Assembly (NCBI GenBank): GCA_007280895.1
Contig: QYQN01000023.1
Location: 30,861-94,860, forward strand
DNA from: Methylococcaceae bacterium
GTDB taxonomy: Bacteria > Pseudomonadota > Gammaproteobacteria > Methylococcales > Methylomonadaceae
DNA: 64,000 nucleotides
Reading direction: 5' to 3'
In this document: in pieces, positions 1-13,310 of the stretch
Position numbering within the stretch: the first letter of the stretch is position 1
Layout: each line of letters starts with the position of its first letter
The notes under the pieces: generated by a model
Database searches by the model: none
What the model was told of the DNA's origin: nothing
What the model saw: only the letters and a program-made list of their open reading frames with translations
Position numbers and translations under genes: made by a program

Positions 1-278
1 AACTGGATCCAGACGTACTAACTCTTGATGTAGAAATGCCTAGAATGAACGGAATTACTTTTTTACGTAATTTGATGCGCTTGCGTCCAATGCCTGTGGT
101 GATGATTTCAGCCTTAACGGAAAGCAATGCTGAAGTGACACTTGAAGCGTTATCAATAGGGGCGGTCGATTTCATTGCAAAACCAGTCGTTAATGTTGAA
201 AATACATTAAATGATTACGCTGATGATATTATTACAAAAGTAATTATGGCCTCCAAAGCTAACTTCAGGACAACGTAA
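1..278 (+). CDS. CheB-type receiver (REC) domain protein without a methylesterase domain; 5' end lies outside the window
   Basis: The reading frame is open from base 3 ([29 protein letters not shown]...) and stops at 276-278. It aligns colinearly with residues ~49-139 of the downstream CheB. The phospho-acceptor context LTLDVEMP and the FIAKP lysine are retained. It ends in the linker (ASKANFRTT). Confidence 0.7.
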
Positions 279-342
279 TTATGGGCACAAAAAAGATTAG
301 TTTACTTTTACTATTAAACGAATGATTTAAGGTTCTTCTGAT

Positions 343-1422
343 ATGAATAAAATTCGAGTTTTGATAATAGATGATTCTGCATTAGTCAGAAAAATTTTAA
401 CTGAAGTTCTCACCTCTTCACCTGACATTGAGGTTATTGGCACTGCAGCAGATCCCCTGATTGCTAGAGAAATGATTAAACAATTAAATCCAGATGTATT
501 AACGTTGGATATAGAAATGCCCCACATGGACGGCATAACCTTCTTAAGAAATCTGATGCGTTTACGGCCTACGCCTGTGATCATGATTTCAACCCTAACC
601 GAAAAAGGTGCCGAAGTCACTTTAGAAGCCCTATCGTTAGGCGCTGTTGATTTTATTTTTAAACCTAAAGTTAATGTCGTCAAAACACTGAATGACTATG
701 CTGACGAAATTATTGCTAAAATCAGGGTTGCCGCCAAAGCAAATGTCCGTAATATCAACTACAGACAAGTAAAATCAAAAGCTGATGATATTGTCCCAAA
801 AACAGCGCTGTCTCCCAAATCATCGAACACTGACAATGCGAATACCATTATTGCCTTAGGTGCTTCAACCGGCGGTACTGAAGCAATTAAAGTAGTGGCT
901 AAGGGACTCACAGCTGAAACGCCACCATTATTTATAACTCAACATTTGCCCGCAGCATTTAGTGTGTCATTCGTCCAACATGTTGATATGGTCACGGAAA
1001 TGAAAGCAAGTATTCCTACTCATGGGGAAATTGCTAAGAAAGGACATATCTACCTCGCGCCAGGCGATAGACACATGCTCGTGATTAGGGAAAATGGTCA
1101 ATATGTCATTCATTTAAACGATAGCGACCCTGTCAATAGACATAAACCAGCCGTTGACGTGCTCTTTCAATCTATTGCTGAATGCGCAGGAAAAAATGCT
1201 ATTGCAGTCTTACTAACTGGCATGGGTGCTGACGGCGCAATAGGCATGAAACAAATGCATGATATGGGGGCTAAAACGCTTATTCAAGACGAGCAATCCA
1301 GTGTCGTGTGGGGAATGCCAGGAGCCGCTTATAAACTAGGCTGCACTGATTACGTATTACCCATAGACGACATCGCCAATCAAATTCAAACGTTAATAAA
1401 ACAAATCAAACATAACAATTAA
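343..1422 (+). CDS. cheB: Protein-glutamate methylesterase/glutaminase CheB (REC plus methylesterase domains)
   Basis: N-terminal REC domain (VLIIDDS, LTLDIEMP, FIFKP). The C-terminal domain carries the catalytic-triad contexts GASTGGTEA (Ser), TQHLP (His) and GMGADG (Asp). Confidence 0.93.
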   Translation: MNKIRVLIIDDSALVRKILTEVLTSSPDIEVIGTAADPLIAREMIKQLNPDVLTLDIEMPHMDGITFLRNLMRLRPTPVIMISTLTEKGAEVTLEALSLGAVDFIFKPKVNVVKTLNDYADEIIAKIRVAAKANVRNINYRQVKSKADDIVPKTALSPKSSNTDNANTIIALGASTGGTEAIKVVAKGLTAETPPLFITQHLPAAFSVSFVQHVDMVTEMKASIPTHGEIAKKGHIYLAPGDRHMLVIRENGQYVIHLNDSDPVNRHKPAVDVLFQSIAECAGKNAIAVLLTGMGADGAIGMKQMHDMGAKTLIQDEQSSVVWGMPGAAYKLGCTDYVLPIDDIANQIQTLIKQIKHNN

Positions 1423-1498
1423 ACAAAATAAGCAACGATTAGGTATTAATTTAATTAACGAATTTTGATGATAAACCTTAACAACAAATAGCCTTCCT

Positions 1499-2107
1499 AT
1501 GAACATTCAAACAAAATCTCAATTTGTTGCCGTAGCATCTATTACATCTGAATTAAGTGCGGTCATGGTCGTTGCTAAGGAAATATCATTAGCCGCAGCT
1601 AATGCTAAAGCCATTGCATTTAGAGCGGGAGACAAAGCGAAAGGATTTCAACCAATCACTGATTTCATTAATGAGCTCGCTAAAGAAACAATCGAGTTAG
1701 TCACCAGTATCAACGTCTATGCACTTTCACTATACCAACTAACTGTTAATGAATATCGTAAAACAATAGCTTACAATAAATTTGAATTAATCGCTGAGTT
1801 ATCAAAAGATGCGGCTCATGCTCACTCTATGGAAGAGCCTCTTGAAAAAGCAAAACTTACCATGGAAAACTGTCAACGACAATTTAAACGCGATGTAAAA
1901 CAATTATTAGATCAGCTAGAAGCAGTTATGCACCATGCTAGAGCGGCACGAGTAATTGCTGCAAATTCACGAATCGAAGCATCTCAAGCCGGCGAATATC
2001 TACAAAGTTTACAAGCAGTAGCTGAAAGTGTAGATAAAGCCGCACATACCATTCACGATAATGTACAGCGTTGTAGAATCGCATTATCTCTTTATAGAAA
2101 TAATTGA
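1499..2107 (+). CDS. Small soluble MCP-signalling-domain-like protein with two hairpin-tip motifs; no sensor, TM, HAMP or methylation region
   Basis: Residues 31-63 (LAAANAKAIAFRAGDKAKGFQPITDFINELAKET) and 152-185 (VIAANSRIEASQAGEYLQSLQAVAESVDKAAHTI) both resemble the conserved MCP tip LALNAAIEAARAGEqGRGFAVVAdEVRkLAerS. The rest of the protein looks helical. No hydrophobic TM segment. Confidence 0.6.
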   Translation: MNIQTKSQFVAVASITSELSAVMVVAKEISLAAANAKAIAFRAGDKAKGFQPITDFINELAKETIELVTSINVYALSLYQLTVNEYRKTIAYNKFELIAELSKDAAHAHSMEEPLEKAKLTMENCQRQFKRDVKQLLDQLEAVMHHARAARVIAANSRIEASQAGEYLQSLQAVAESVDKAAHTIHDNVQRCRIALSLYRNN

Positions 2108-2130
2108 ACCCTAAAGTAAGGCAGTGTCTC

Positions 2131-2862
2131 ATGAAAATGACAAAAATATACGAAGGCTCGCATCAATGGATTATGTTTGGTAGAGATGAAAACAAGCCTT
2201 CCAATATCATAGACAGCAACCAATATGCTGTAAGAACAGCCAATAAATGCTTATTAATGGATCCGGGCGGTTCTGAATTATTTGCTCCAATGATGGCAGC
2301 TATTTTGCACCACGCTCCGGTAGAGCAAATAACTGATTTGTTCGCATCCCACCAAGATCCAGATGTAATTTCATCATTAGGTTTATGGGATCAAGCGCTT
2401 TCAAATGCAAAATTACACGCACCGGCGCTTTGGGAAGGCTTTATTCGTCATTATCTTGGCTGTGAATCAATTGAATATGTACCAATTCCAGACAATGGTG
2501 GAACGATAAAATTAGAAAATATTGAATTGCAACTGATTCCAGCTCATTATCTACACTCATCTGCTAACTTTCATGTCTATGATCCTCAAGCAAAAATTTT
2601 AATGTCTGGCGATGTAGGTTCTGCATTGGAACCGGCGGGCACGCCGATGTTTGTAGAAAACTTTGATTCACATATTGAAAAAATGAGATATTTTCATCAA
2701 CGCTGGATGCCATCAAATCATGCCAAAAGAGCATGGATTGAACGCGTAAGAAATTTAGATATTGATATTCTTGCACCACAACATGGCCGAATTTTTAAAG
2801 GCGATGATGTTAAGCACTTCTTAGATTGGTTTGATGCATTACAAGTAGGAGTTGCTGTTTAA
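2131..2862 (+). CDS. Metallo-beta-lactamase-fold protein, ODP-like (candidate di-iron oxygen/iron sensor for chemotaxis)
   Basis: The ORF track starts at a TTG at 2104; the ATG at 2131 (MKMTKIYEG) is preferred. Motifs spaced as in the MBL/flavodiiron fold: SHQDPD, IPAHYLH, MSGDVGS, APQHGRIF. It lies 24 nt downstream of the mini-receptor stop, or overlaps that stop if the TTG is used. Confidence 0.55.
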   Translation: MKMTKIYEGSHQWIMFGRDENKPSNIIDSNQYAVRTANKCLLMDPGGSELFAPMMAAILHHAPVEQITDLFASHQDPDVISSLGLWDQALSNAKLHAPALWEGFIRHYLGCESIEYVPIPDNGGTIKLENIELQLIPAHYLHSSANFHVYDPQAKILMSGDVGSALEPAGTPMFVENFDSHIEKMRYFHQRWMPSNHAKRAWIERVRNLDIDILAPQHGRIFKGDDVKHFLDWFDALQVGVAV

Positions 2863-2879
2863 CACAGCAACTATTTTTT
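2851..2879 (+). terminator. Rho-independent terminator after the ODP-like gene
   Basis: Perfect 8-bp stem gttgctgt / acagcaac (2851-2858 and 2864-2871) with a 5-nt loop that contains the TAA stop. It is followed by tatttttt. The T-run lies inside the 3' end of the convergent mlaA-like gene. Confidence 0.65.
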
Positions 2880-3779
2880 AAAACGATTTAATTTACTTTC
2901 TGCCTGCCTATAATCTTCTACTGCTTTCTCAAAGTGGTAAATAGTTTTATCAAAAACTAATGAAGACGCTTTAAAAGAATTGCGCAATTTAGGTAAAGTG
3001 CTTGTTGAATTTAAAGCACTTTCATCTAACTCTTCGTCAAAATCTAAAGATTGATTTCCCTTCCCATCAGAGGATAAATTTCTCCGCCATTGCAAGAAAG
3101 ATTCTCTAGTAAATAAATAGGGGTCTAACGCTGCTTCATCAATAAATTTTAACGCCCCTTCTGCATTAGCACGGGCATTTAAAATAGACAACAACTGTAT
3201 TGGCGCACCAATATAACTTGTAGGATTAGTTGCAGTATCAAACATAGCACCAGGAACTCCGCGTAAAGTGAGTGGGCCTACAATTGGCAATACTAAATAA
3301 GGCCCCTCTGGAACACCCCACACAGCAAGCGTTTGATCAAAATCTTCATCATTTTGCTCAAGCCCCAAATCTTTAGCCACATCAAAGATACCTAATAAGC
3401 CTAAACTTGTATTGACGACTAACCGTCCTGAGTCTTTAGCACTCTGCTTAAATTTTGCCTGTAACACATCATTGAAAATAACATTAAAATTTCTTAAATT
3501 AGTATAGAAATTAAAAATACTATTTTTAACAAACTGAGGAGCGACATACTGATAAGCATTTGAAATAGGCTCAGCCAAGTATTCATCAAGATAATCATTG
3601 AAGACAAATACTTTCCTATTAATGTTCTCATAGGGATCAGTCTTTTTAACCATGGAGTTGTGGTCTAAAACAGGCTGAGACGCGCACCCACTTATAACGA
3701 CAAAGACCAAGGATAAAAAATAAAAAACTCTTTTTTTACCCAACCAAAGAGCAAACAAGTTTAATAAATAAGCAGTCAT
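2871..3779 (-). CDS. mlaA: MlaA/VacJ-family outer-membrane lipoprotein
   Basis: Lipobox VVISGC. VacJ-like core (DPYENINRKVFVFNDYLDEYLAEPISNAY...GLLGIFDVA). Carries a C-terminal extension of about 60 aa. Confidence 0.8.
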   Translation of the reverse strand: MTAYLLNLFALWLGKKRVFYFLSLVFVVISGCASQPVLDHNSMVKKTDPYENINRKVFVFNDYLDEYLAEPISNAYQYVAPQFVKNSIFNFYTNLRNFNVIFNDVLQAKFKQSAKDSGRLVVNTSLGLLGIFDVAKDLGLEQNDEDFDQTLAVWGVPEGPYLVLPIVGPLTLRGVPGAMFDTATNPTSYIGAPIQLLSILNARANAEGALKFIDEAALDPYLFTRESFLQWRRNLSSDGKGNQSLDFDEELDESALNSTSTLPKLRNSFKASSLVFDKTIYHFEKAVEDYRQAESKLNRFKK

Positions 3780-3791
3780 AACTAGGATTTG

Positions 3792-4406
3792 TTATTGTTT
3801 AGAATAAATAGTAATCTTTTCATTAATCTTAGCTATTAAAGCATCAAAGCCTTCATGTTGCAAAATGTTGGTGTATTCAGAACGCTTTACAGCCAGATCA
3901 CTTACCCCGTTAGCTATGATATTGATAATTTTCCAATGCCCTGCAATTTCTTTGAGATTATAGTCAAATTTGACAGCTTTATCGTTAGGAATGACTAAAT
4001 GAGAATGTACAACAACCCCGCCTCTTGCCGTCTCTTCCTCCGAATCAAAAACAAAGCTTTCACCTGAATATTCTTTAAAATTATGAGCATAAGAAGCAAC
4101 GCTGTACTTGCTAAAAGTAGTGACCAAGATATCTTGCTGCTCTTTTGACAACCCCTCCCACTCTTTACCCACTACAATACGCACTATCTTAGTTAAATCA
4201 TGAGTATCTGAAACAGGCTCATAAAGCGCTTCATAACGCCCAGAATACCCAAGCTGCTTGCCCTTTTTCATAGCAGTAAGCAATTGCGACTGAAAGCCTT
4301 CAACAACTTGACGAGCAGTTAATAGCTCTTGAGCCGAAACAGTAAAAACTACCAAGCATAATACACATAAATACAAAAACTTAACTTTAGTTAACAACAT
4401 CAGCAT
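3792..4406 (-). CDS. hpnM: MlaC/Ttg2D-family periplasmic lipid-binding protein, HpnM-like
   Basis: Signal peptide, about 200 aa, with the size and pattern of the Ttg2D/MlaC family. It lies immediately downstream of hpnH, as hpnM does in hopanoid loci. Confidence 0.7.
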   Translation of the reverse strand: MLMLLTKVKFLYLCVLCLVVFTVSAQELLTARQVVEGFQSQLLTAMKKGKQLGYSGRYEALYEPVSDTHDLTKIVRIVVGKEWEGLSKEQQDILVTTFSKYSVASYAHNFKEYSGESFVFDSEEETARGGVVVHSHLVIPNDKAVKFDYNLKEIAGHWKIINIIANGVSDLAVKRSEYTNILQHEGFDALIAKINEKITIYSKQ

Positions 4407-4414
4407 TCCTTAAA

Positions 4415-5536
4415 TTAAATCGATTCACCCTGTAATTTTTCTACAACTTCGACGTTAACAGGAATTTTGGATAAAGATGATGCTACAACCTCTTCAAAAC
4501 GTGACTCTGGCACCATTTCACCCTCAGTTTTAATGCCTTTTAAAGATAACACCAAGGCCTTAAAGGGATTTCTTAACATATCCTCAACGGCAGTAGCCTC
4601 ATAACCACAATGCGCCATACAGCTTGCACATTTTGGATTACTATTATTGCCATATTTTTCCCAAGGAGTCGTTTCCAGTAACTCATTAAAACTCGCTGCA
4701 TTACCTTCATCAGCCAATAAATAACACGGTTTTTGCCACCCAAATACATTTCGCGTTGGATTGCCCCAAGGCGTACACTCATAATTTTGATTACCAGCTA
4801 AAAAATCAAGATACAGCGAGGAATGATTTAAACTCCATTTACGCTGCTTCCCGATTTTAAAAATACCTCTAAATAACTCCTTAACATCACGACCTTTAAT
4901 AAAGACATCTTGTTGCGGTGCGCGTTCATAACTGAAGCCTGGAGCAATCGTGACGCCTTCAACACCTAAATCAGTAACGTAATCTAAAAACTCAGCAACT
5001 TCGTGGGCATTTTCGCCTTGAAATAACGTACAATTTACTGTCACCCTAAAACCTTTAGTTAAGGCTAGTTTTATAGCTTCCACAGCACGTTCAAAAACCC
5101 CCTCCTGACAGACAGACGTATCGTGCCGATCTTGCATACCATCCAAATGAATTGAAAACGTTAAATAAGGCGACGGCTTATAATCATCAATACGCTTTTT
5201 CAACAACAATGCATTAGTACACAAATACACATATTTTTTTCTAGCAATAATGCCTTCAACAATTTGCGGCATCTCTTTATGGATTAATGGTTCGCCTCCA
5301 GGAATAGATACCATTGGCGCATTACATTCATCAACAGCCTGCATACATTCCTCAAAAGATAATCTTTTATCCAAAATGTCATCTGGATAATCAATTTTAC
5401 CGCATCCTGCACAAGCTAAATTACAACGAAAAAGAGGCTCTAACATCAACACCAAGGGATATTTTTTAACGCCTTTTAGTTTTTGTTTAATCAGATAACT
5501 GCCAACAGTCAATTGTTGACGCAAAGGAACACCCAT
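4415..5536 (-). CDS. hpnH: Adenosyl-hopene transferase HpnH (radical SAM)
   Basis: CNLACAGCGKI radical-SAM CxxxCxxC motif and a C-terminal Cys cluster. The start was moved to the ATG at 5536 (MGVPLRQQLTVGSYL), which has a GGAGG Shine-Dalgarno 4 nt upstream. The 25-codon extension in the ORF track has no support. Confidence 0.9.
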   Translation of the reverse strand: MGVPLRQQLTVGSYLIKQKLKGVKKYPLVLMLEPLFRCNLACAGCGKIDYPDDILDKRLSFEECMQAVDECNAPMVSIPGGEPLIHKEMPQIVEGIIARKKYVYLCTNALLLKKRIDDYKPSPYLTFSIHLDGMQDRHDTSVCQEGVFERAVEAIKLALTKGFRVTVNCTLFQGENAHEVAEFLDYVTDLGVEGVTIAPGFSYERAPQQDVFIKGRDVKELFRGIFKIGKQRKWSLNHSSLYLDFLAGNQNYECTPWGNPTRNVFGWQKPCYLLADEGNAASFNELLETTPWEKYGNNSNPKCASCMAHCGYEATAVEDMLRNPFKALVLSLKGIKTEGEMVPESRFEEVVASSLSKIPVNVEVVEKLQGESI

Positions 5537-5993
5537 AAAACCTCCAAAATGATTATTTATCGACAAAGATAAACTGAAAATAAAATTTTCATAATAATAA
5601 GCTTGTAGCAATAAAACAACAACAAATTACCACTTCACAACAGTAAATAAATAGGCCTTACACTCAGGTAGCTTATAAAAACACGATAAAACGGATAAAC
5701 CATTGCAAAAATTATTTCAGTCTAAATGTCATCTAGCTGCACTGTACAAAGCAATTAATCAACCAGACTAATTGTCAAATTGACTCCCCTAAATACAACA
5801 ACATCAGTAAATATTAAACGCCCAAACGCGCACAACATACCTTAGCTTAAGTAAGGCAAAGCACTTTCTCAAAAAATCAATACCTCTAAACCTACTCATA
5901 AATTAGCTTTAAAACAACATTGCTTTGCAAAATACCAACAAACAGTCTATGATTTAAAAAAATAATTAAGACAATTTAGTAAATATCGAGCGT

Positions 5994-7112
5994 ATGGGAA
6001 AGTTTGCAATTGACTTAGAAAACCCAAAATCACTAAATCAACTTTCAGATAACGATTTTCAATTAGCATTATTGGAAGGCGTATCCAGAACATTTGCCTT
6101 AACAATTCCTCAACTACCCCCTGAATTATTCGCTCCGGTAGCTAATGCTTACTTGCTATGCAGAATTGTCGATACAATTGAAGACGAAGTGTCGTTATCA
6201 GTGCGTCAAAAAGAATATTTTTGTGCCGAATTTACTACAATTGTCACGACTGGCGAAAATACAGAATTATTTGCTATAGAACTTGCCCCGTTATTATCGG
6301 ATCAAACCCTTGCAGCAGAACATACGCTGATACATGTTTTACCACGCGTAATCCAAATCACTCATACTTTTGCGCCCGAGCAAATTACAGCTTTATCAAG
6401 ATGCGTAGCAACAATGGCGAAAGGCATGCCTGTTTATCAATCAATGGAATTACAAAAAGGCTTAGCAACCCTTAAAGACCTGGATTTATATTGCTACTAC
6501 GTAGCTGGATGCGTTGGCGAAATGCTCACCGAATTATTCTGCTTTTACTCCTCAGACATTGCTAAACACCGCACTGAAATGCTGGCTCTTTCAGTATCTT
6601 TTGGACAGGGTTTACAAATGACCAATATTTTAAAAGATATTGCAGATGATGCTCAACGTGGTGTGTGTTGGCTGCCACAAGACATCTTCACCGAAGTCGG
6701 CTTTGATTTAAAATCTCCAGCATTTGATAAAAACACCGCTCAATACCGCGCAGGCGTAAAGAAATTAATTGCCATAGCGCATGGTCACTTAAACAACGCA
6801 CTAAAATACACGCAGCTATTACCAAAAAATGAACCTGGGATTCGTAATTTCTGCTTATGGGCCGTAGGCATGGCTATTTTGACCCTTAGAAATATACAAA
6901 AAAATACAGCAAGCAGAGCAGAAACGCCGATCAAAATTAGCCGAAATGATGTTAAAAAAACCATTTTTATCACAAATCTATTCAACAAAAATAATACCAT
7001 GCTGGATTTAATTTTTAATTTAGCAAGCTTGGGTTTAACAACATCCAAAAAAACAGCTCAACCTATGTCAACTCAAACCAATGTTACAAAGTTTCTACAT
7101 TTAAAAAAATAA
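5994..7112 (+). CDS. sqs: Squalene synthase (farnesyl-diphosphate farnesyltransferase, single-enzyme Sqs type)
   Basis: Squalene/phytoene synthase fold: SRTFALTIPQLP, Asp-rich motifs RIVDTIEDE and NILKDIADDAQRG. At 372 aa it is longer than HpnC/HpnD. It lies directly upstream of shc. Confidence 0.75.
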   Translation: MGKFAIDLENPKSLNQLSDNDFQLALLEGVSRTFALTIPQLPPELFAPVANAYLLCRIVDTIEDEVSLSVRQKEYFCAEFTTIVTTGENTELFAIELAPLLSDQTLAAEHTLIHVLPRVIQITHTFAPEQITALSRCVATMAKGMPVYQSMELQKGLATLKDLDLYCYYVAGCVGEMLTELFCFYSSDIAKHRTEMLALSVSFGQGLQMTNILKDIADDAQRGVCWLPQDIFTEVGFDLKSPAFDKNTAQYRAGVKKLIAIAHGHLNNALKYTQLLPKNEPGIRNFCLWAVGMAILTLRNIQKNTASRAETPIKISRNDVKKTIFITNLFNKNNTMLDLIFNLASLGLTTSKKTAQPMSTQTNVTKFLHLKK

Positions 7113-7151
7113 GAAGCCAGCATAAATCAACTATTTTTTTAAGGACTTACT

Positions 7152-9119
7152 ATGTTTACTGATGCCAATCAACATTCCAATGCACGCGTCACTGCAAGCG
7201 CATCCGTTGCAATTCTATCGCATGCTAATAACTTAGATAACGCAATTGATAGCGCAAAAAAACAGCTACTTCAGCTTCAAGACCAGCAAGGCTATTGGTT
7301 ATTTGAACTCGAAGCAGACTGCACTATCCCTGCTGAGTACATTCTAATGATGCATTATCTTGATGATATTGATCATACTTTGCAGGCAAAAATGGCGACC
7401 TACCTAAGATCTCGTCAATCAGAAGATGGCAGTTACCCTTTATTTACAGGCGGACAAGGTGATATTAGCTGCAGTGTTAAGGTTTATTATGCCTTGAAAT
7501 TATCAGGTGATGACAGCAATGCACCCCACATGCAAACACTAAGAGAATTTATTCTTAAGCAAGGTGGTGCGGCAAAAGCAAATGTATTTACTCGAATTGC
7601 ATTAGCTATTTTTGGTCAATTACCTTGGCGCGGCGTCCCCTATATTCCTGTTGAAATCATGCTTCTACCCTCATGGTTTCCCTTCCATTTAGACAAAGTC
7701 TCTTACTGGTCAAGAACGGTAATGGTGCCTCTTTTTATTTTATGCACATTACAAGCTAAGGCTAAAAACCCATTAAATATTAATGTCCTTGAGCTTTTTG
7801 TCACGCACCCTGATAAAGAACAACATTACTTCCCAAACAGAACAGTATTAAATAAAATTTTCTTAGGTCTTGATAAGGCGGGACGGGCGTTCGAATCATT
7901 CATTCCTTCGGGCTTTAGAAACAAAGCACTTAAAAAAGCCGAGGCGTGGTTTGTAGAAAGACTTAATGGCGAGGATGGTTTAGGTGGTATTTTTCCAGCG
8001 ATGGTCAATGCTTATGAAGCCTTACTGTTATTAGGCTATGCTGAAGACAATGAATTAGTCATTACTGCTCGTAAAGCAATAGATAAACTACTAGTCGTCA
8101 ATGAAGAGGATGCGTATTGTCAACCATGCTTATCCCCCATCTGGGATACTGCATTAGTCGCATTAGCATTACAAGAAGTGGACAAGAGTGCTCCCCAACC
8201 TGTCATTCAACACAGTCTAGCATCAGCATACTCATGGTTAAAATCTAAACAACTCACTGATGAGCCCGGCGATTGGCAAATAAAAAATCCACGCTTAGCC
8301 GGTGGTGGCTGGGCGTTTCAATTTGCTAACCCTCATTATCCAGATGTAGATGATACTGCAGTTGTCGCTTTTGCAATGGCTGATTCTCACTTAACCAATT
8401 TAAATGAATCCATTACTAGAGCCACTAAATGGATAGCTGGCATGCAATCTGATAATGGCGGTTATGGTGCATTTGATATTAACAATACCAGTTACTATTT
8501 AAATGAAATTCCTTTTGCAGACCACGGCGCCTTACTTGACCCACCTACTGCTGACGTAAGTGCACGTTGCGCCATGTTGTTAGCTAAAATCTGCACCACC
8601 AATGGCGACTATTTACCCGAATTAACACGCACACTTAACTATTTGCGCAAAGAGCAAGAAGAAGATGGCTCGTGGTTTGGTCGGTGGGGCACCAACTATA
8701 TTTATGGAACTTGGTCGGTGCTTATTGCGTTAGAACAAACTGACACGCCCAAAACAGATTCAGTTTTTGTCAAGGCGGCTCAATGGTTAAAAAGTATTCA
8801 ACGTCCTGATGGCGGATGGGGGGAAGATAACTTTAGCTATCACGACACGACCACTAAAGGACGCTACCACTTCAGTACCTCTTTTCAAACAGCATGGGCC
8901 TTATTAGGCTTAATTGCAGCTGGCGAAGTACATTCAGCAGAAGTAAAAGCGGGCATAGATTTTATTTTACGTCACCAACAAACTGATGGTTTTTGGAATG
9001 ACAAATGTTTTACTGCCCCCGGTTTCCCAAAGGTTTTTTATTTGAAATATCATGGCTATGATAAATTCTTCCCATTATGGGCCTTAGCTAGATACCGTAA
9101 TGAGAGTCGTCAATCGTGA
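7152..9119 (+). CDS. shc: Squalene-hopene cyclase
   Basis: 655 aa. Repeated QW motifs (QDQQGYW, RQSEDGSYP, QRPDGGWGE, QQTDGFW) and the catalytic DVDDTA motif. Confidence 0.95.
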   Translation: MFTDANQHSNARVTASASVAILSHANNLDNAIDSAKKQLLQLQDQQGYWLFELEADCTIPAEYILMMHYLDDIDHTLQAKMATYLRSRQSEDGSYPLFTGGQGDISCSVKVYYALKLSGDDSNAPHMQTLREFILKQGGAAKANVFTRIALAIFGQLPWRGVPYIPVEIMLLPSWFPFHLDKVSYWSRTVMVPLFILCTLQAKAKNPLNINVLELFVTHPDKEQHYFPNRTVLNKIFLGLDKAGRAFESFIPSGFRNKALKKAEAWFVERLNGEDGLGGIFPAMVNAYEALLLLGYAEDNELVITARKAIDKLLVVNEEDAYCQPCLSPIWDTALVALALQEVDKSAPQPVIQHSLASAYSWLKSKQLTDEPGDWQIKNPRLAGGGWAFQFANPHYPDVDDTAVVAFAMADSHLTNLNESITRATKWIAGMQSDNGGYGAFDINNTSYYLNEIPFADHGALLDPPTADVSARCAMLLAKICTTNGDYLPELTRTLNYLRKEQEEDGSWFGRWGTNYIYGTWSVLIALEQTDTPKTDSVFVKAAQWLKSIQRPDGGWGEDNFSYHDTTTKGRYHFSTSFQTAWALLGLIAAGEVHSAEVKAGIDFILRHQQTDGFWNDKCFTAPGFPKVFYLKYHGYDKFFPLWALARYRNESRQS

Positions 9120-9823
9120 TTACGGGCATTATCATCGCACTTCCAAACGAACTAACAACGCTTACATCCAAACGCATTGACCGCGGTCATTGTGTTTTTA
9201 TTGCAGATAAAATACTTGTAGCCTACTCTGGTGCAGGCGCGACCAATGCGCAAATCTCTGCCGAATTATTAATAAGTAAAGGCACAAATCAACTGATTAG
9301 CTGGGGGTGCGCTGCTGCGTTAGATGGCGCTTTAAAACCAGGTGACTTAGTTATCGCAGATCGCTTAATCACTCGAGATGATGAATACATTGAGGTAAAT
9401 AAGCGTTGGCACGCCCATGCACATAGCCTATTAAGCCCGTTACTTACAACATTTATTGGTGGCTTAACCGAAAGCGCAAGCATTGTTTCTTCTAACAAAG
9501 AAAAACAGCATCTACACACAATAACTCAAGCGATTGCCCTTGATATGGAAAGTGCTGCAATAGCTAAAACTGCACAAGAAAAAAATCTACCTTTTTTAAC
9601 GATTCGCGTTATTGTTGACCCCGCCACGATGAACATGCCGGCAGCCATAAACTACGCCATTAATGATCATGGCGAAATCAGCCTAAAAAAGTTAGCTCTC
9701 TTTATCGCCTTACATCCTAATGAATTAGTTGATTTAATTCGTTTGGGCTTTTATTTTAATGCAGCAAAATCATCACTTAAACAGGTTGCTAAAAAAATTG
9801 ACGCCCTAAGCCACTTTCAATGA
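9116..9823 (+). CDS. hpnG: Hopanoid-associated phosphorylase/nucleosidase HpnG
   Basis: PNP/MTA-nucleosidase-like fold (ALDMESAAIA). The GTG start overlaps the shc stop (GTGA). Its position after shc is typical of hpnG. Confidence 0.8.
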   Translation: MITGIIIALPNELTTLTSKRIDRGHCVFIADKILVAYSGAGATNAQISAELLISKGTNQLISWGCAAALDGALKPGDLVIADRLITRDDEYIEVNKRWHAHAHSLLSPLLTTFIGGLTESASIVSSNKEKQHLHTITQAIALDMESAAIAKTAQEKNLPFLTIRVIVDPATMNMPAAINYAINDHGEISLKKLALFIALHPNELVDLIRLGFYFNAAKSSLKQVAKKIDALSHFQ

Positions 9824-9881
9824 GTCAAATACCATAACTTTTACTCTTTAAACCCGATCCACTAGCTATCAAAGATATATC

Positions 9882-11270
9882 ATGACCTTCAGTATCTCCG
9901 AGCTTTTCACCAAGCATAATTTAGAAAAATTTGATCTACACGAAGAATACCTTAACAACCAAATGGTTAGGGTATTAAAAACAATAGGCTATGATCGTTG
10001 TTATGATAGAGCCATTGGGCAATATTTGTACGATCAACAAGGAAATGAATATTTAGACTTATTGAGCGGTTTTGGTGTATTTGCTATTGGACGCAATCAC
10101 CCAACCGTAATAGCGGCTTTAAAAGAAACGCTTACTTTAGAATTACCTAATCTAGTACAACTAGATGTATCGGTATTAAGTGGCTTGCTGGCGAAAGAAA
10201 TACTTAAAACAACACCTGAAAACATTACTAAAATGTTTTTTTGTAATTCAGGAACTGAAGCCGTTGAAGCCGCCATAAAATTTGCGCGCTACACCACAAA
10301 AAGAGAAAAAATTGTCTTCTGTGAGCATGGCTATCATGGCTTAACCATGGGCGCATTATCTTTAAACGGCGAACATATTTTTAGAGAAGGCTTTGGGCAA
10401 TTACTCCCTGGCTGTAGCTCCGTGCCTTTTAACGATCTTGCTGCATTAGAATCAGCGCTTGAAAATAAAGATGTGGCGGCATTTATCGTTGAACCTATTC
10501 AAGGAAAAGGCGTAAATCTTCCAGATGAAAACTACCTTCCCGAAGTAGAACGGTTATGCAACAAATACGGCACCTTATTTGTTGCGGATGAGGTTCAAAC
10601 AGGTTTAGGTAGAACAGGAAAGTTTTGGGCTATTGACCATTGGCATGTAAAACCTGACATGATTTGTATGGCAAAAGCCTTATCTGGCGGCTTTGTGCCT
10701 GTTGGCGGTGTCGCGATTACTCAAAAAATAATGGATACTGTTTACAATCGCATGGATAGAGCGGTTGTTCATGGCTCAACCTTCTCAAAAAACAATATGG
10801 CTATGGCCGCAGGCTTAGCCACTTTGCATGTTTTAGAAGAAGAAAAGTTAGTTGAAAACAGCGCTAAAATAGGCAATGAAATTATTCAAAGTCTGCATGC
10901 TTTAGCGGACAAATATGAATTCCTGAAAGAAGTACGCGGCAAAGGCATGATGATTGCCGTAGAATTTCAAGCACCTAAAAGCATGACATTAAAAGCCGCG
11001 TGGGCAATGCTTGAAGCCGCAAATAAAGGACTATTTTGCCAAATGATCACTATTCCATTATTTAAAGACCATCATATTCTTACTCAAGTTGCTGGGCATG
11101 GCATGAATGTCGTCAAATTACTCCCCCCACTAAATTTAACAATAAAAGATCGTGATCATATTGTCACTGCCTTTGATAAGACCATCCATGAAACCCATCA
11201 AATACCTGGTTCACTCTGGGATCTAGGAAAAAATCTCGCCAGCCACGCGCTGAAAAACAAAAAAGGATAA
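9882..11270 (+). CDS. hpnO: Class-III PLP aminotransferase, HpnO-like (aminobacteriohopanetriol synthase candidate)
   Basis: Class-III aminotransferase pattern (CNSGTEAVEAAIKFAR, ADEVQTGLGRTGKFWA, MAKALSGG). Follows hpnG. Confidence 0.7.
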   Translation: MTFSISELFTKHNLEKFDLHEEYLNNQMVRVLKTIGYDRCYDRAIGQYLYDQQGNEYLDLLSGFGVFAIGRNHPTVIAALKETLTLELPNLVQLDVSVLSGLLAKEILKTTPENITKMFFCNSGTEAVEAAIKFARYTTKREKIVFCEHGYHGLTMGALSLNGEHIFREGFGQLLPGCSSVPFNDLAALESALENKDVAAFIVEPIQGKGVNLPDENYLPEVERLCNKYGTLFVADEVQTGLGRTGKFWAIDHWHVKPDMICMAKALSGGFVPVGGVAITQKIMDTVYNRMDRAVVHGSTFSKNNMAMAAGLATLHVLEEEKLVENSAKIGNEIIQSLHALADKYEFLKEVRGKGMMIAVEFQAPKSMTLKAAWAMLEAANKGLFCQMITIPLFKDHHILTQVAGHGMNVVKLLPPLNLTIKDRDHIVTAFDKTIHETHQIPGSLWDLGKNLASHALKNKKG

Positions 11271-11273
11271 GTC

Positions 11274-11630
11274 ATGCGTGCCCAACATTTCTTACTCTGC
11301 ATACTGCTACTCCTTGCTTACCAAGAACAGCTTTACGCGCACGCCGTCGTCACCGAACATTCTTTTGCCATCACTAAAATCCATGCCAATCATGAAGAGC
11401 AAGTGAGCCTTGATTTTAATTCAAAAATTGAATTAGGTTTATCTGAAATTTTTTTAGTCAGCAAAGGCGATGTATATACATTATTACCTATTTCTAAAGG
11501 TAAAAAACAAGGGCAAATCTTAATTAACATTCCTGCATTAGCATCAGGTGAATACGCTATTAAACTTAAAGTGTTTGCTGCTGATGGTCATTTAACTGAA
11601 GATGTTATTTATTTTTCCGTTATTCCTTAG
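11274..11630 (+). CDS. copC: CopC-domain periplasmic copper-binding protein
   Basis: A signal peptide is followed by a mature N-terminus HAVV. C-terminal pattern GEYAIKLKVFAADGHLTEDVIYFSV, typical of CopC. Confidence 0.75.
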   Translation: MRAQHFLLCILLLLAYQEQLYAHAVVTEHSFAITKIHANHEEQVSLDFNSKIELGLSEIFLVSKGDVYTLLPISKGKKQGQILINIPALASGEYAIKLKVFAADGHLTEDVIYFSVIP

Positions 11631-11639
11631 GACATTTGC

Positions 11640-13310
11640 ATGGCCGGCATTGCTGATTTTCTTGATTCCTTAATTGGTGGCTTTTCACTTATTTGCTTTG
11701 CGCTAGCAGTAGGTAGCTTATTTTGGGGATTATTTATCCTACAACCTTGGCAAAAAAAGGCTGACCTACCACCAGTTTTATTAGATAAAACTATACGTTT
11801 ATTAAGCCTAGGCGGCATAACCTTAGCTTGCACCCAACTTTTTAAAGTAATTTTAAAAATTTGGCTTATGAGTGCCGTGCTTAATCACTCCCCATTTCCT
11901 GAATTTGCAGACACAACGCAATTTATTGGGGGCCTTGTGCGCACCTTATTAACGGCTATTTTTACAGGTTATTGTGCTTTAGTTTTAGCAAAAAATCCGT
12001 TTTCCAAAGTTTATTGGTATAGAGCAGCATGGCTAGCCATGCCCATGATTATTTCAGGAGCATGGCTAGTTCATGCTGCAGGGCGTTTTGATAATCCCTA
12101 TATTCTTATGGGGCTTACCGTTATTCACCAACTTGGCGCTGCGGCATGGGTAGGTGGCGTGTTCCATTTAGTACATATTTGGATACTAACAAAACAACAG
12201 ACAATCCCCGCCACACTTTGGCCCAAATTATTAAAACGCTTCTCTATTTTTGGCTTTAGTTCAGTAGGCGTGATTTTATTAACCGGCTTACCCATGGGCT
12301 TGCAATATATTGACAGCTGGAATGGATTAATTGGCACAGGTTACGGCAACTTACTGACGGTAAAAATCATTCTTCTTGGACTGGCGTTAAGTCTTGCCTG
12401 GCTCAATAAGTCAACGGTGCACGCGTATTTTTTAACAGATAATGATCACGGCTTAAACACTCGCCTACCTCATTACCTTGAAGCAGAAGCATTTGTATTA
12501 ATTACGTTATTATTTACCGCTGCAAGTTTAGCCTCACAACCACCCGCCATTGACATTCCTCATCTTACGGCGACGTGGCAAGAGGTCATCACGATGTTTG
12601 CCCCTCAATGGCCAAGCATAGCCTCACCGTCACACCACGATTTAATCGCTGGCGAAGCCGGTCGTGTAGCAATTATTGGTCAAACACCTTCTGAAGCAGC
12701 AACGGCTTGGTCAAATTATAATCATAATATTGCGGGTATTTTTCTCACTATCATGAGTTTTTTTGCCATGCTTTCTTATGTTAAACAACGCCCCCATAAT
12801 GCCTCGGCAGCGCTTGAAATCTTCTTCTCACTGATTACACGGTATTGGCCAATAGGCTTTATTGCACTGGGTGTTTTCTTATTTTTCCGCAGCGATGCAG
12901 AAACGTGGCCTCTTGGGCCCATCGGTTTTTGGGAAAGCACTTTTAATAATGGCGAAGTTTTACAACATCGAATTGCAACATTGCTGGTCTTTTCGTTAGG
13001 CGTGATTGAAGTATTTGCTCGACTACCCAAATACCAAAAAAGTCATCTTCCTTATTTTTTTCCTATCTTAGCGGCTTTTGGCGGACTCATGTTGTTAACC
13101 CATTCCCATATTGGATTTCAAGCTAAAAGCGCATTTTTAATACAAGTAGGCCATACCTTAATGGGTATTTTTTCTTTGATTCTTGCCTGTGGACGCTGGC
13201 TGGAATTGAAATTAGATCGACCAGGTAAGGATATTGCTGGATTTATTTCTGTAGCCGCCCTGTTTCAAATTGGACTTATTTTAATGTTCTATCGTGAACC
13301 CCTTTATTAA
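11640..13310 (+). CDS. copD: CopD-family integral membrane protein with a long extra C-terminal membrane domain
   Basis: Polytopic membrane protein. CopD-like HQLGAAAWVGGVFHLV motif. At 556 aa it is roughly twice the usual CopD length. Immediately follows copC. Confidence 0.7.
   Translation: MAGIADFLDSLIGGFSLICFALAVGSLFWGLFILQPWQKKADLPPVLLDKTIRLLSLGGITLACTQLFKVILKIWLMSAVLNHSPFPEFADTTQFIGGLVRTLLTAIFTGYCALVLAKNPFSKVYWYRAAWLAMPMIISGAWLVHAAGRFDNPYILMGLTVIHQLGAAAWVGGVFHLVHIWILTKQQTIPATLWPKLLKRFSIFGFSSVGVILLTGLPMGLQYIDSWNGLIGTGYGNLLTVKIILLGLALSLAWLNKSTVHAYFLTDNDHGLNTRLPHYLEAEAFVLITLLFTAASLASQPPAIDIPHLTATWQEVITMFAPQWPSIASPSHHDLIAGEAGRVAIIGQTPSEAATAWSNYNHNIAGIFLTIMSFFAMLSYVKQRPHNASAALEIFFSLITRYWPIGFIALGVFLFFRSDAETWPLGPIGFWESTFNNGEVLQHRIATLLVFSLGVIEVFARLPKYQKSHLPYFFPILAAFGGLMLLTHSHIGFQAKSAFLIQVGHTLMGIFSLILACGRWLELKLDRPGKDIAGFISVAALFQIGLILMFYREPLY

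Follow-up and report, generated by a model that had tools for sequence, protein, structure and literature searches.

A candidate oxygen/Fe(II)-sensing cassette, an ODP-family protein encoded with a two-hairpin mini-receptor, at the end of a methanotroph chemotaxis operon

The window analysed here is the whole of a 64,000-nucleotide stretch of contig QYQN01000023.1 (assembly GCA_007280895.1, positions 30,861 to 94,860 of the forward strand), from a Methylococcaceae bacterium. Near its start, the chemotaxis gene cheB (343 to 1422) is directly followed by two open reading frames (ORFs), 1499 to 2107 and 2131 to 2862, that are separated by 23 nt. The first codes for a small protein resembling the signalling tips of methyl-accepting chemotaxis proteins (MCPs), which we call the mini-receptor, and the second for a protein of the ODP family with a metallo-beta-lactamase (MBL) fold. 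An earlier note, written from the letters of this DNA, had placed both ORFs downstream of cheB in an AT-rich, gammaproteobacterium-like genome, and both points hold. The GC content of the window is 39%, and the 202-residue product of ORF 1499 to 2107 is encoded residue-for-residue in metagenome-assembled genomes (MAGs) of Methylovulum type (Methylococcales), i.e. methanotrophs. The features of the two-gene module, which include residues aligned with those of flavodiiron proteins (FDPs), are as follows.

1499 to 2107, + strand: mini-receptor, 202 residues, soluble, with two MCP-tip-like hairpins in one chain
1622 to 1648, + strand: turn motif of tip 1, R42-A-G-D-K-A-K-G-F50 (canonical MCP counterpart R-A-G-E-x-G-R-G-F)
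1802 to 1819, + strand: predicted loop joining hairpins 1 and 2 (residues 102 to 107), a DSSP break in the AlphaFold2 model, at the same place in the relative P0391
1985 to 2011, + strand: turn motif of tip 2, Q163-A-G-E-Y-L-Q-S-L171, degenerate, keeping the I-E-A-x-x-A-G-E arm and having lost G-x-G-F
2131 to 2862, + strand: ODP, 243 residues, MBL/flavodiiron-type fold, no flavodoxin domain
2350 to 2364, + strand: predicted first metal-binding motif, H74-Q-D76-P-D78, invariant in the alignment including both solved ODPs
2545 to 2556, + strand: H139-Y-L-H142 (in IPAHYLH), with H139 at 2545 to 2547 and H142 at 2554 to 2556; H142 aligns with a ligand His of FDPs
2611 to 2613, + strand: D161 (in MSGDVGS), aligning with the bridging Asp of FDPs (S-x-D motif)
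2782 to 2784, + strand: H218 (in APQHGRIF), invariant; A-P-Q-H-G aligns with P-G-H-G of FDPs

The ODP gene was taken to begin at ATG 2131, because its homologues begin with MKMTKIYEG at the equivalent position. The TTG at 2104, offered in the earlier note as another possible start of a protein of about 245 residues, was rejected on the same grounds. The four motifs listed in that note are all where it had placed them, except that its first one, SHQDPD, was one codon too long for 2350 to 2364, the Ser codon being 2347 to 2349.

The 243-residue protein matches the ODP model of Pfam (PF19583) over positions 1 to 194 of 194 with an E-value of 1.6e-69 and 234.2 bits, for a cut-off of 27.2. Solved ODPs are matched over residues 7 to 241 (6QRQ/6QWO, E 3e-60; 6QNM/6R9N, E 5e-51), with full-length identities of 42% to 6QRQ and 37% to 6QNM. 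In the profile search, the next solved relatives are FDPs, at E ~1e-9, and hydrolytic MBL proteins (methyl parathion hydrolase, lactonases, glyoxalase II) are found at E > 1e-3. The solved O2-sensing ODPs thus match some 50 orders of magnitude better than any enzyme, and the ordinary hydrolase that the earlier note had kept in mind as the alternative finds no place among the best homologues. The only other Pfam model to match is Lactamase_B (E 2.6e-18), and the Pfam search detected no flavodoxin or rubredoxin domain in the 243 residues. As already noticed in the earlier note, the first motif is H-x-D-x-D; the hydrolase motif HxHxDH is absent from this protein and from all its aligned relatives.

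In the alignment with the FDP of Thermotoga maritima (1VME), SHQDPDV of the ODP faces NHTEPDH, so that the fourth FDP ligand, a His, is replaced by V79. L-H142-S falls on L-H-W, S-G-D161 on S-C-D and P-Q-H218-G on P-G-H-G. Ligand-competent residues are found at 6 of the 7 FDP ligand positions, the fourth His being Val in every aligned ODP. Every sequence of the ODP alignment, the window protein and the solved ODPs included, has H74, D76, D78, H139, H142 and H218 as well as the APQHG motif. D161 is kept in 7/8 aligned ODPs, among them the window protein and both solved ones. The alignment to the T. maritima and Treponema denticola proteins proposed in the earlier note therefore finds H74, D76, D78, H142, D161 and H218 in both. 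H139 belongs to a set of invariant, ODP-specific histidines that also comprises H107, H181 and H189. By homology, the product of ORF 2131 to 2862 truly belongs to the ODP family and is a flavodiiron-like di-iron protein with an MBL fold.

The mini-receptor has a weak match to the MCPsignal domain (PF00015; E 3.8e-6, 27.3 bits), and conventional MCPs in related loci score 101 to 176 bits. Its closest solved relatives are structures, either of tip fragments or of the whole chain, of TM14 from T. maritima (3UR1, 4JPB, 3G67; E ~1e-4), whose tip is central (residues 76 to 146 of 213). It has no sensor domain, and we found in it no long hydrophobic segment suggestive of a membrane anchor. A search of the protein for the methylation consensus [ASTG][ASTG]xx[EQ][EQ]xx[ASTG][ASTG] was also negative, the sole EE pair being in the loop region. 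Thus, it carries the MCP tip motif and lacks the methylation region, and its score stays under the MCPsignal threshold.

The earlier note had described a receptor more reduced than those known to accompany ODPs, with two tips, and the internal repeat bears this out. Residues 12-91 and 132-200 align without gaps with a BLOSUM62 local score of 71 (z ~10); 500 shuffles gave 25.5 +/- 4.5, with a maximum of 45. At the family level, hhalign of the N-half profile against the C-half profile aligns 57 columns without gaps and in tip register (E 2.5e-4). Taken alone, the halves map to one and the same tip region of MCPsignal (N-half, positions 32-92, 20 bits; C-half, positions 14-86, 16 bits, E 0.008), each under the Pfam threshold. 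These comparisons show that the mini-receptor, at the level of sequence, consists of two short tip hairpins in tandem, an internal duplication. It differs in this from the TM14/TDE2496 type of receptor, a single long hairpin with one central tip: it has two direct tip repeats and four predicted helices of 35-57 residues.

All of 72 diverse members of the family (24-64% identical) have N35 in tip 1; conservation is 90% or more at R42, A43, G44 and F50, and also at E160 and A161 of tip 2. In Methylococcales members both tip regions are invariant, and residues ~84-128 are variable, with indels; the loop between the hairpins lies in this variable middle, with indels and low conservation in the alignment. 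In what we take to be the corresponding Tsr (Escherichia coli) numbering, tip 1 keeps the equivalents of N381, R388, G390, G395 and F396 and has Ile at E385. By the same presumed correspondence tip 2 (N156...E160-A-S-Q-A-G165-E-Y-L-Q-S-L171) keeps E385, G390 and E391 and has Leu for F396. As the two tips keep different Tsr-equivalent residues, the halves have presumably diverged asymmetrically.

AlphaFold2 predicts four helices for the mini-receptor monomer (residues 3-47, 51-101, 108-164 and 166-200; 43-sequence alignment, pLDDT 84.8, pTM 0.73). The model of P0391, 36-41% identical, is a four-helix bundle with the same breaks (pLDDT 90.3, pTM 0.81). Foldseek comparisons with the PDB, which for plain helical bundles are informative for overall shape only, returned as best hits for both models de novo single-chain four-helix bundles of ~196 residues (5VJS, 5VJU, 8D9P, 6Z0C). 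We also analysed covariation by mean-field direct coupling analysis of 319 family sequences (Neff 157), a noisy data set. Couplings between tip 1 and tip 2 (54-171, 54-168, 43-163, 49-171, 47-171 and 51-171) rank 2, 4, 5, 12, 13 and 18, in registers that fit parallel H1/H3 and H2/H4 and antiparallel H1/H4 and H2/H3 helix pairs. Equal-height inter-hairpin couplings are enriched over a background of 18% (12/31 in the top 60, p = 0.006; 33/89 in the top 150, p = 2e-5), to an extent comparable to the intra-hairpin positive control. This enrichment was computed under a same-end model, the opposite-end model having zero background by construction. The covariation speaks for a side-by-side position of the two tips, and according to the models the hairpins most likely pack as a single-chain four-helix bundle ~7-8 nm long, a natural pseudo-dimer.

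These data bear on another architecture, in which the mini-receptor would be a miniature rod bridging two CheA/CheW layers of a cytoplasmic array, either as a parallel dimer with one tip per end or as an antiparallel swapped dimer with a composite tip per end, with ODP as an accessory. There is a precedent in DosM (VC1403) of the Vibrio cholerae F9 arrays, which has two tandem signalling domains, usually no sensor domain, and forms a rod with one signalling domain per end (PMC7534058; PMC9321776). The mini-receptor has two tip-like repeats, neither of which reaches the Pfam threshold (20 and 16 bits); its operon includes genes for a ParA-like ATPase and a STAS protein, and the covariation contact map is the same for a closed bundle and an antiparallel swapped dimer. 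Nevertheless, two members were modelled as compact four-helix bundles and not as extended rods, with a helix break at residues 102-107, in a region of indels with a conserved Pro114. In a parallel rod, whose homotypic tips would lie at opposite ends, tip 1 and tip 2 should not covary, yet pairs between them are among the strongest couplings. A central helix of 114 residues would span ~17 nm, as against 35 nm between F9 baseplates. Furthermore, the operon lacks the triple-domain CheW that is the hallmark of F9: its two cheW genes are single-domain, and its order is like that of F7 stage 1 (PMC7184735). We consider the rod unlikely.

To estimate the size of the family, we searched 1.84 billion cluster representatives exhaustively with HMMER. 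This gave 255 clusters (50% identity) at E <= 1e-3, 176 of them at E <= 1e-10. Since nearly all are 195-220 residues long and align over their full length, at 24-45% identity, the mini-receptors form a distinct and broad family. A later protein search with the family profile returned again almost only Methylococcales, plus the distant P0391. A precomputed MCPsignal match is present in about one-third to one-half of the listed members, and P0391 has none. As members fall below the MCPsignal threshold, chemoreceptor censuses based on domain thresholds undercount the family.

The genetic linkage was analysed in one genome per GTDB species, using patterns of the mini-receptor only (FQPIT[DN][FY]I and NAKA[IV][AS]xRAG, derived from an 11-sequence subset), and the ORFs of the best 80 of 143 relatives were searched with HMMs built from the ODP and mini-receptor alignments. 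In 75 of these 80 species-level loci the next gene downstream, in the same orientation, is an ODP gene; the absence of a conserved linkage, which would have refuted the earlier note, is not what is seen. In the other five, the contig ends 142-735 nt after the mini-receptor gene, before an ODP gene could fit, so that linkage is found in 75/75 testable loci. The gaps between the two genes have a median of ~30 nt, most being estimated at 20-45 nt, and the arrangement is the same in L001-L004 and L085/L086 (L numbers designate the loci compared). The hosts include Methylomonas, Methylobacter, Methylovulum, Methylomarinum and Methylotuvimicrobium/Methylomicrobium. The pair is also found in Chromatiales, Thiohalophilus, Ectothiorhodospiraceae, Immundisolibacteraceae and a bivalve symbiont, as well as in one Ca. 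Manganitrophaceae MAG and one ‘Acidobacteria’ MAG. In P0280, a database sequence of 104 residues, the first 83 residues of a mini-receptor are followed by a C-terminal segment of ODP (...FVDNFTAHIEKMRYFH). A deletion across the pair or a faulty assembly is the probable origin, and the sequence is incidental evidence of adjacency.

In the lineage of the window, the pair closes a chemotaxis operon. Longer contigs encoding the exact 202-residue protein, checked with Pfam, have the order cheY-cheA-cheW-cheW-ParA-like ATPase-STAS-cheR-cheD-REC-cheB-mini-receptor-ODP, in which REC is a stand-alone receiver domain and the two cheW genes are separate and single-domain (178 and 168 residues). Four relatives (L061, L067, L072, L079) have a conventional HAMP-containing MCP gene before the second cheW (MCPsignal 172-176 bits), and the same position in L001 (4819-5123) is a 304-nt non-coding gap. 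This leaves the mini-receptor as the sole receptor-like gene of the operon, from which the regular receptor has apparently disappeared while the mini-receptor/ODP pair stayed.

The settings are different in other lineages. The pair follows cheB, a conventional 401-residue MCP gene and a gene for an HATPase_c_2 protein in Methylotuvimicrobium, and fliH-fliI-fliJ-fliK-flagellin in other loci. It is found between tol-pal/queC and miaB/phoH/ybeY in Methylomonas, after msbA-lpxK-kdsB in Chromatiales, and among dacA/rlpA, rlmH/maf or folK/folB/tsaD elsewhere. As the flanking genes differ so widely, while the order, the strand and the short gap of the two genes stay constant in all the genomes compared, the pair appears to be a self-contained cassette.

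Such housekeeping settings would also suit a cassette that does not feed CheA, in which ODP and a coiled-coil partner would make up a stand-alone O2 or iron regulator and the site behind cheB would be incidental. An ODP paralogue coupled to a GGDEF-EAL protein in L051 indicates that ODP can serve other outputs. Nevertheless, the partner keeps the MCP tip residues for receptor-receptor and CheW/CheA contacts (N35, R42, A43, G44, F50), its nearest solved relative is a chemoreceptor tip, and in many lineages the pair comes last in a che operon or follows fliH-I-J-K-flagellin. Distance from cheA is not decisive, in that the sensor-less receptor of T. denticola is encoded away from cheA and yet acts on the single CheA (PMC7666581). 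We regard this regulator as slightly less probable still than the rod. Lastly, that the ODP-like gene codes for an enzyme (an O2- or NO-reducing scavenger of flavodiiron type, or an MBL hydrolase) beside an unrelated coiled coil is very improbable, for although the fold is common to both kinds of enzymes, as the Lactamase_B match reflects, and homologues are labelled ‘flavorubredoxin’, ‘flavoprotein’ or ‘MBL fold metallo-hydrolase’ by the JGI and NCBI pipelines, the ODP model covers a protein devoid of flavodoxin and rubredoxin domains and of HxHxDH, the solved sensors are by far its best matches, and its neighbour stands beside it in every testable locus.

We therefore favour the view that 1499 to 2862 is a two-gene sensory cassette, ODP with a dedicated mini-receptor, that ends a Methylovulum-type che operon and provides CheA with an O2/Fe(II) input; we put its probability at roughly 0.7. 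The analogous sensor-receptor module proposed in the earlier note is supported by the ODP family score, the conservation of the metal positions and the linkage. By analogy with the ODPs of T. denticola and T. maritima, the di-iron site would report the availability of Fe(II) and O2 through a conformational change, and ODP would bind or release the mini-receptor in a metal- and O2-dependent manner. The mini-receptor might insert into CheA/CheW assemblies, or dock on them, via a composite tip, and the binding of ODP would bias the kinase activity of CheA. The outcome would be an aerotaxis or iron-taxis input with neither a transmembrane nor a PAS/heme sensor. Adaptation would have to come from other receptors, because the mini-receptor has no methylation sites.

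Several points weigh against this view. Adaptation via the mini-receptor is unexplained, although the operon has cheR, cheD and cheB. Where the pair sits among housekeeping genes, as in many lineages, no che genes adjoin and coupling to CheA has no contextual support. The MCPsignal score of 27.3 bits is below the cut-off of 34.6, the hhalign probability for the two halves is 43%, and the C-terminal halves of four distant members gave no MCPsignal match, tip 2 being degenerate. The Foldseek TM-scores, up to 0.6 over ~200 columns, come with non-significant E-values, and the covariation enrichment is ~2-fold, with statistics that ignore phylogeny. As their contact maps are identical, a closed monomer and an antiparallel domain-swapped dimer are not separable by covariation, and the AlphaFold2 monomer models fit either a closed four-helix bundle or the swapped dimer, such that the closed topology is to be read as a prediction. 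The iron ligands are predicted from the FDP alignment, from invariance and from agreement with the solved ODPs. The metal content and O2 binding of this ODP are predictions as well, and so are its contact with the mini-receptor and the binding of the latter to CheA/CheW.

More tentatively, and with somewhat less than even odds, nature may have made, in the ~200-residue protein that accompanies ODP, a single-chain receptor ‘dimer’ with diverged tips, which together with ODP would form a minimal O2/Fe(II) cassette, horizontally portable, for the CheA/CheW array of its host. Tip 1 would be the one to keep the trimer-contact and C-arm residues (equivalents of N381, R388 and F396), and tip 2 the N-arm equivalents of E385, G390 and E391. 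The fusion could thus hard-wire, within one chain, the asymmetry of the receptor-dimer subunits inside a trimer of dimers.

The other features around the module are as follows.

1 to 278, + strand: 3' part of the stand-alone REC (CheY-like) gene, operon context outside the module
343 to 1422, + strand: cheB, receiver and methylesterase domains (CheB_methylest, E 6e-56; Response_reg, E 7e-24), directly upstream of the module
2850 to 2872, T-run to ~2879, no strand assigned: terminator-like hairpin (9 bp stem, 5 nt loop) followed by a T-run, from a terminator scan
2871 to 3779, - strand: mlaA, convergent with the ODP gene

The full REC gene in L001 (8364-8780) codes for 138 residues with a Pfam Response_reg match. 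It is 74% identical over 136 residues to the receiver domain at the N-terminus of CheB, which suggests a recent duplication of that domain. It is found in some relatives (L042, L066, L070, L077), and others have the same operon without it. The ParA/MinD-like ATPase and STAS-domain protein are encoded between cheW and cheR upstream of the window (L001 5634-6801). Their presence here recalls the partitioning ATPases of cytoplasmic or polar chemosensory clusters.

The terminator that the earlier note saw at 2851 to 2879 was recovered by the scan. The hairpin overlaps the stop codon of the ODP gene (2860 to 2862) and abuts the end of the convergent mlaA gene (2871), and it probably stops transcription from both sides. 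Beyond it, 2871-13310 carries mlaA and mlaC, then a hopanoid-type cluster (radical-SAM/DUF3463, squalene/phytoene synthase-like, squalene-hopene cyclase, PNP_UDP_1 and aminotransferase genes), then copC and copD. The stretch from mlaA to copD, with its membrane-lipid and copper genes, is of a kind usual in methanotrophs and has no relation to the module. An Rfam scan of positions 1-6000 gave no match, and a promoter scan found 13 sites for 15.1 expected by chance; we claim no internal promoter.

Two loci of relatives harbour further genes near the cassette or its ODP. In a Methylomarinum MAG (L051 7944-10285, - strand), a second ODP paralogue (Pfam ODP, E 8e-64) overlaps a GGDEF-EAL gene by 4 nt, with a TonB-dependent receptor gene adjoining. 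This genome thus appears to wire ODP to both a mini-receptor and c-di-GMP turnover. In Methylotuvimicrobium buryatense 5G (L022 7508-11761), the pair is preceded by the genes for the 401-residue MCP and the HATPase_c_2 (anti-sigma-kinase-like) protein, and directly followed by one for a 1417-residue hybrid protein (Hpt, multiple PAS, HisKA, HATPase, three REC). Through these neighbours the cassette is linked to partner switching, genes for which have been reported in F7 stage-1 clusters.

What is already known here is the identity of ODP, given by Pfam and some NCBI names (‘oxygen-binding di-iron domain-containing protein’), and the principle of ODP-MCP pairing, published in 2019. According to the summaries in PMC7666581, PMC7319448 and PMC6978683, the coupling of ODP to a sensor-less receptor was described by Muok et al. 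(2019, PNAS). Beyond DosM and engineered constructs, the literature searched yielded no natural two-hairpin, single-chain or pseudo-dimer chemoreceptor and no methanotroph ODP, although the supplement of the 2019 paper might cover part of this. The ~200-residue two-hairpin family, its predicted asymmetric pseudo-dimer fold and the strictness with which it accompanies ODP in many Gammaproteobacteria look undescribed in that literature.

Aerobic methanotrophs inhabit oxic-anoxic interfaces, where growth is decided by how they are placed with respect to O2 and dissolved Fe(II). If the proposed function is correct, an ODP-based chemotaxis input would be a concrete sensor for the positioning of these bacteria, among which Methylotuvimicrobium buryatense carries the same cassette. 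Similarly, a natural pseudo-dimer with two different tips would be an evolutionary counterpart of the engineered Tm14/Tar foldons, and could show which dimer face contacts CheA/CheW and which makes trimer contacts. There is also a consequence for annotation, the family being currently labelled ‘chemotaxis protein’, ‘hypothetical’ or ‘flavorubredoxin’ and its members missed by threshold-based MCP counts.

The closest known systems are the pairs of T. denticola (TDE2498 with TDE2496) and T. maritima (ODP with TM14), for which the structures 6QRQ/6QWO and 6QNM/6R9N are available. Their ODPs are of the same family (37-42% identity) with the same metal-site residues, and they share the same logic, in that the gene of a di-iron sensor adjoins that of a soluble, sensor-less receptor. 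The tip of TM14 is the closest solved relative of tip 1. The earlier note was right about these pairs in principle, and misnamed the T. denticola receptor: TDE2498, its Td2498, is the ODP, an O2 sensor for chemotaxis, and the receptor to which it is genetically coupled is TDE2496, which has no transmembrane or sensor modules and modulates CheA (PMC7666581). Loss of the T. denticola ODP alters the order of CheA in the arrays (PMC7666581), and the ODP-receptor interaction depends on conformation (PMC6978683). Two arrangements of ODP and MCP genes within an operon have been reported, and ODP genes also occur beside signalling genes of other kinds (PMC7319448). The window pair differs from those of T. 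denticola and T. maritima by its host, a gammaproteobacterial methanotroph, by its location at the end of an F7-like che operon or as a free-standing cassette, and by a receptor that falls below the MCPsignal threshold. TM14 and TDE2496 are one long homodimerising hairpin, whereas the mini-receptor has two short hairpins in ~200 residues, with a degenerate second tip.

Engineered receptor foldons, in which 71-residue tip segments of Tm14 or Tar are fused as dyads, bind CheA/CheW and change kinase activity (bioRxiv 10.1101/2020.03.27.011866). Like the mini-receptor, they place two tip hairpins head-to-tail in one chain, in their case meant as a dimer-mimicking four-helix bundle. They are laboratory-made, with identical tips and an added trimerisation motif, whereas the window protein is natural, with ~100 residues per hairpin, diverged tips and a dedicated sensor partner. 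Receptor foldons were reportedly described by Greenswag (2015) as well. DosM has two tandem signalling-tip regions in one chain, to which the two tip-like repeats of the window protein may correspond, and it is usually without a sensor domain, so that its signal must come from other proteins. It is a long rod spanning baseplates 35 nm apart and works with a triple-domain CheW, in contrast with the 202-residue window protein and its tips predicted side by side.

For the operon, the nearest parallel is the F7 stage-1 order of Methylomicrobium alcaliphilum and V. cholerae, cheY-cheA-two cheW-aer2-like MCP-cheR-cheD-cheB-mcpA-like MCP (PMC7184735), which the operon here resembles, a likeness drawn from gene order alone. 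For ODP, it is the FDPs (FprA, ROO, NorV; 1VME, 1YCF, 1E5D), which share the MBL-like di-iron domain and in which H-x-(E/D)-x-D, the following His, the bridging Asp and the final His all align with the ODP residues. In contrast with FDPs, ODP has no flavodoxin domain, its fourth ligand position is Val instead of His, and its family has been described as a sensor rather than an oxidoreductase.

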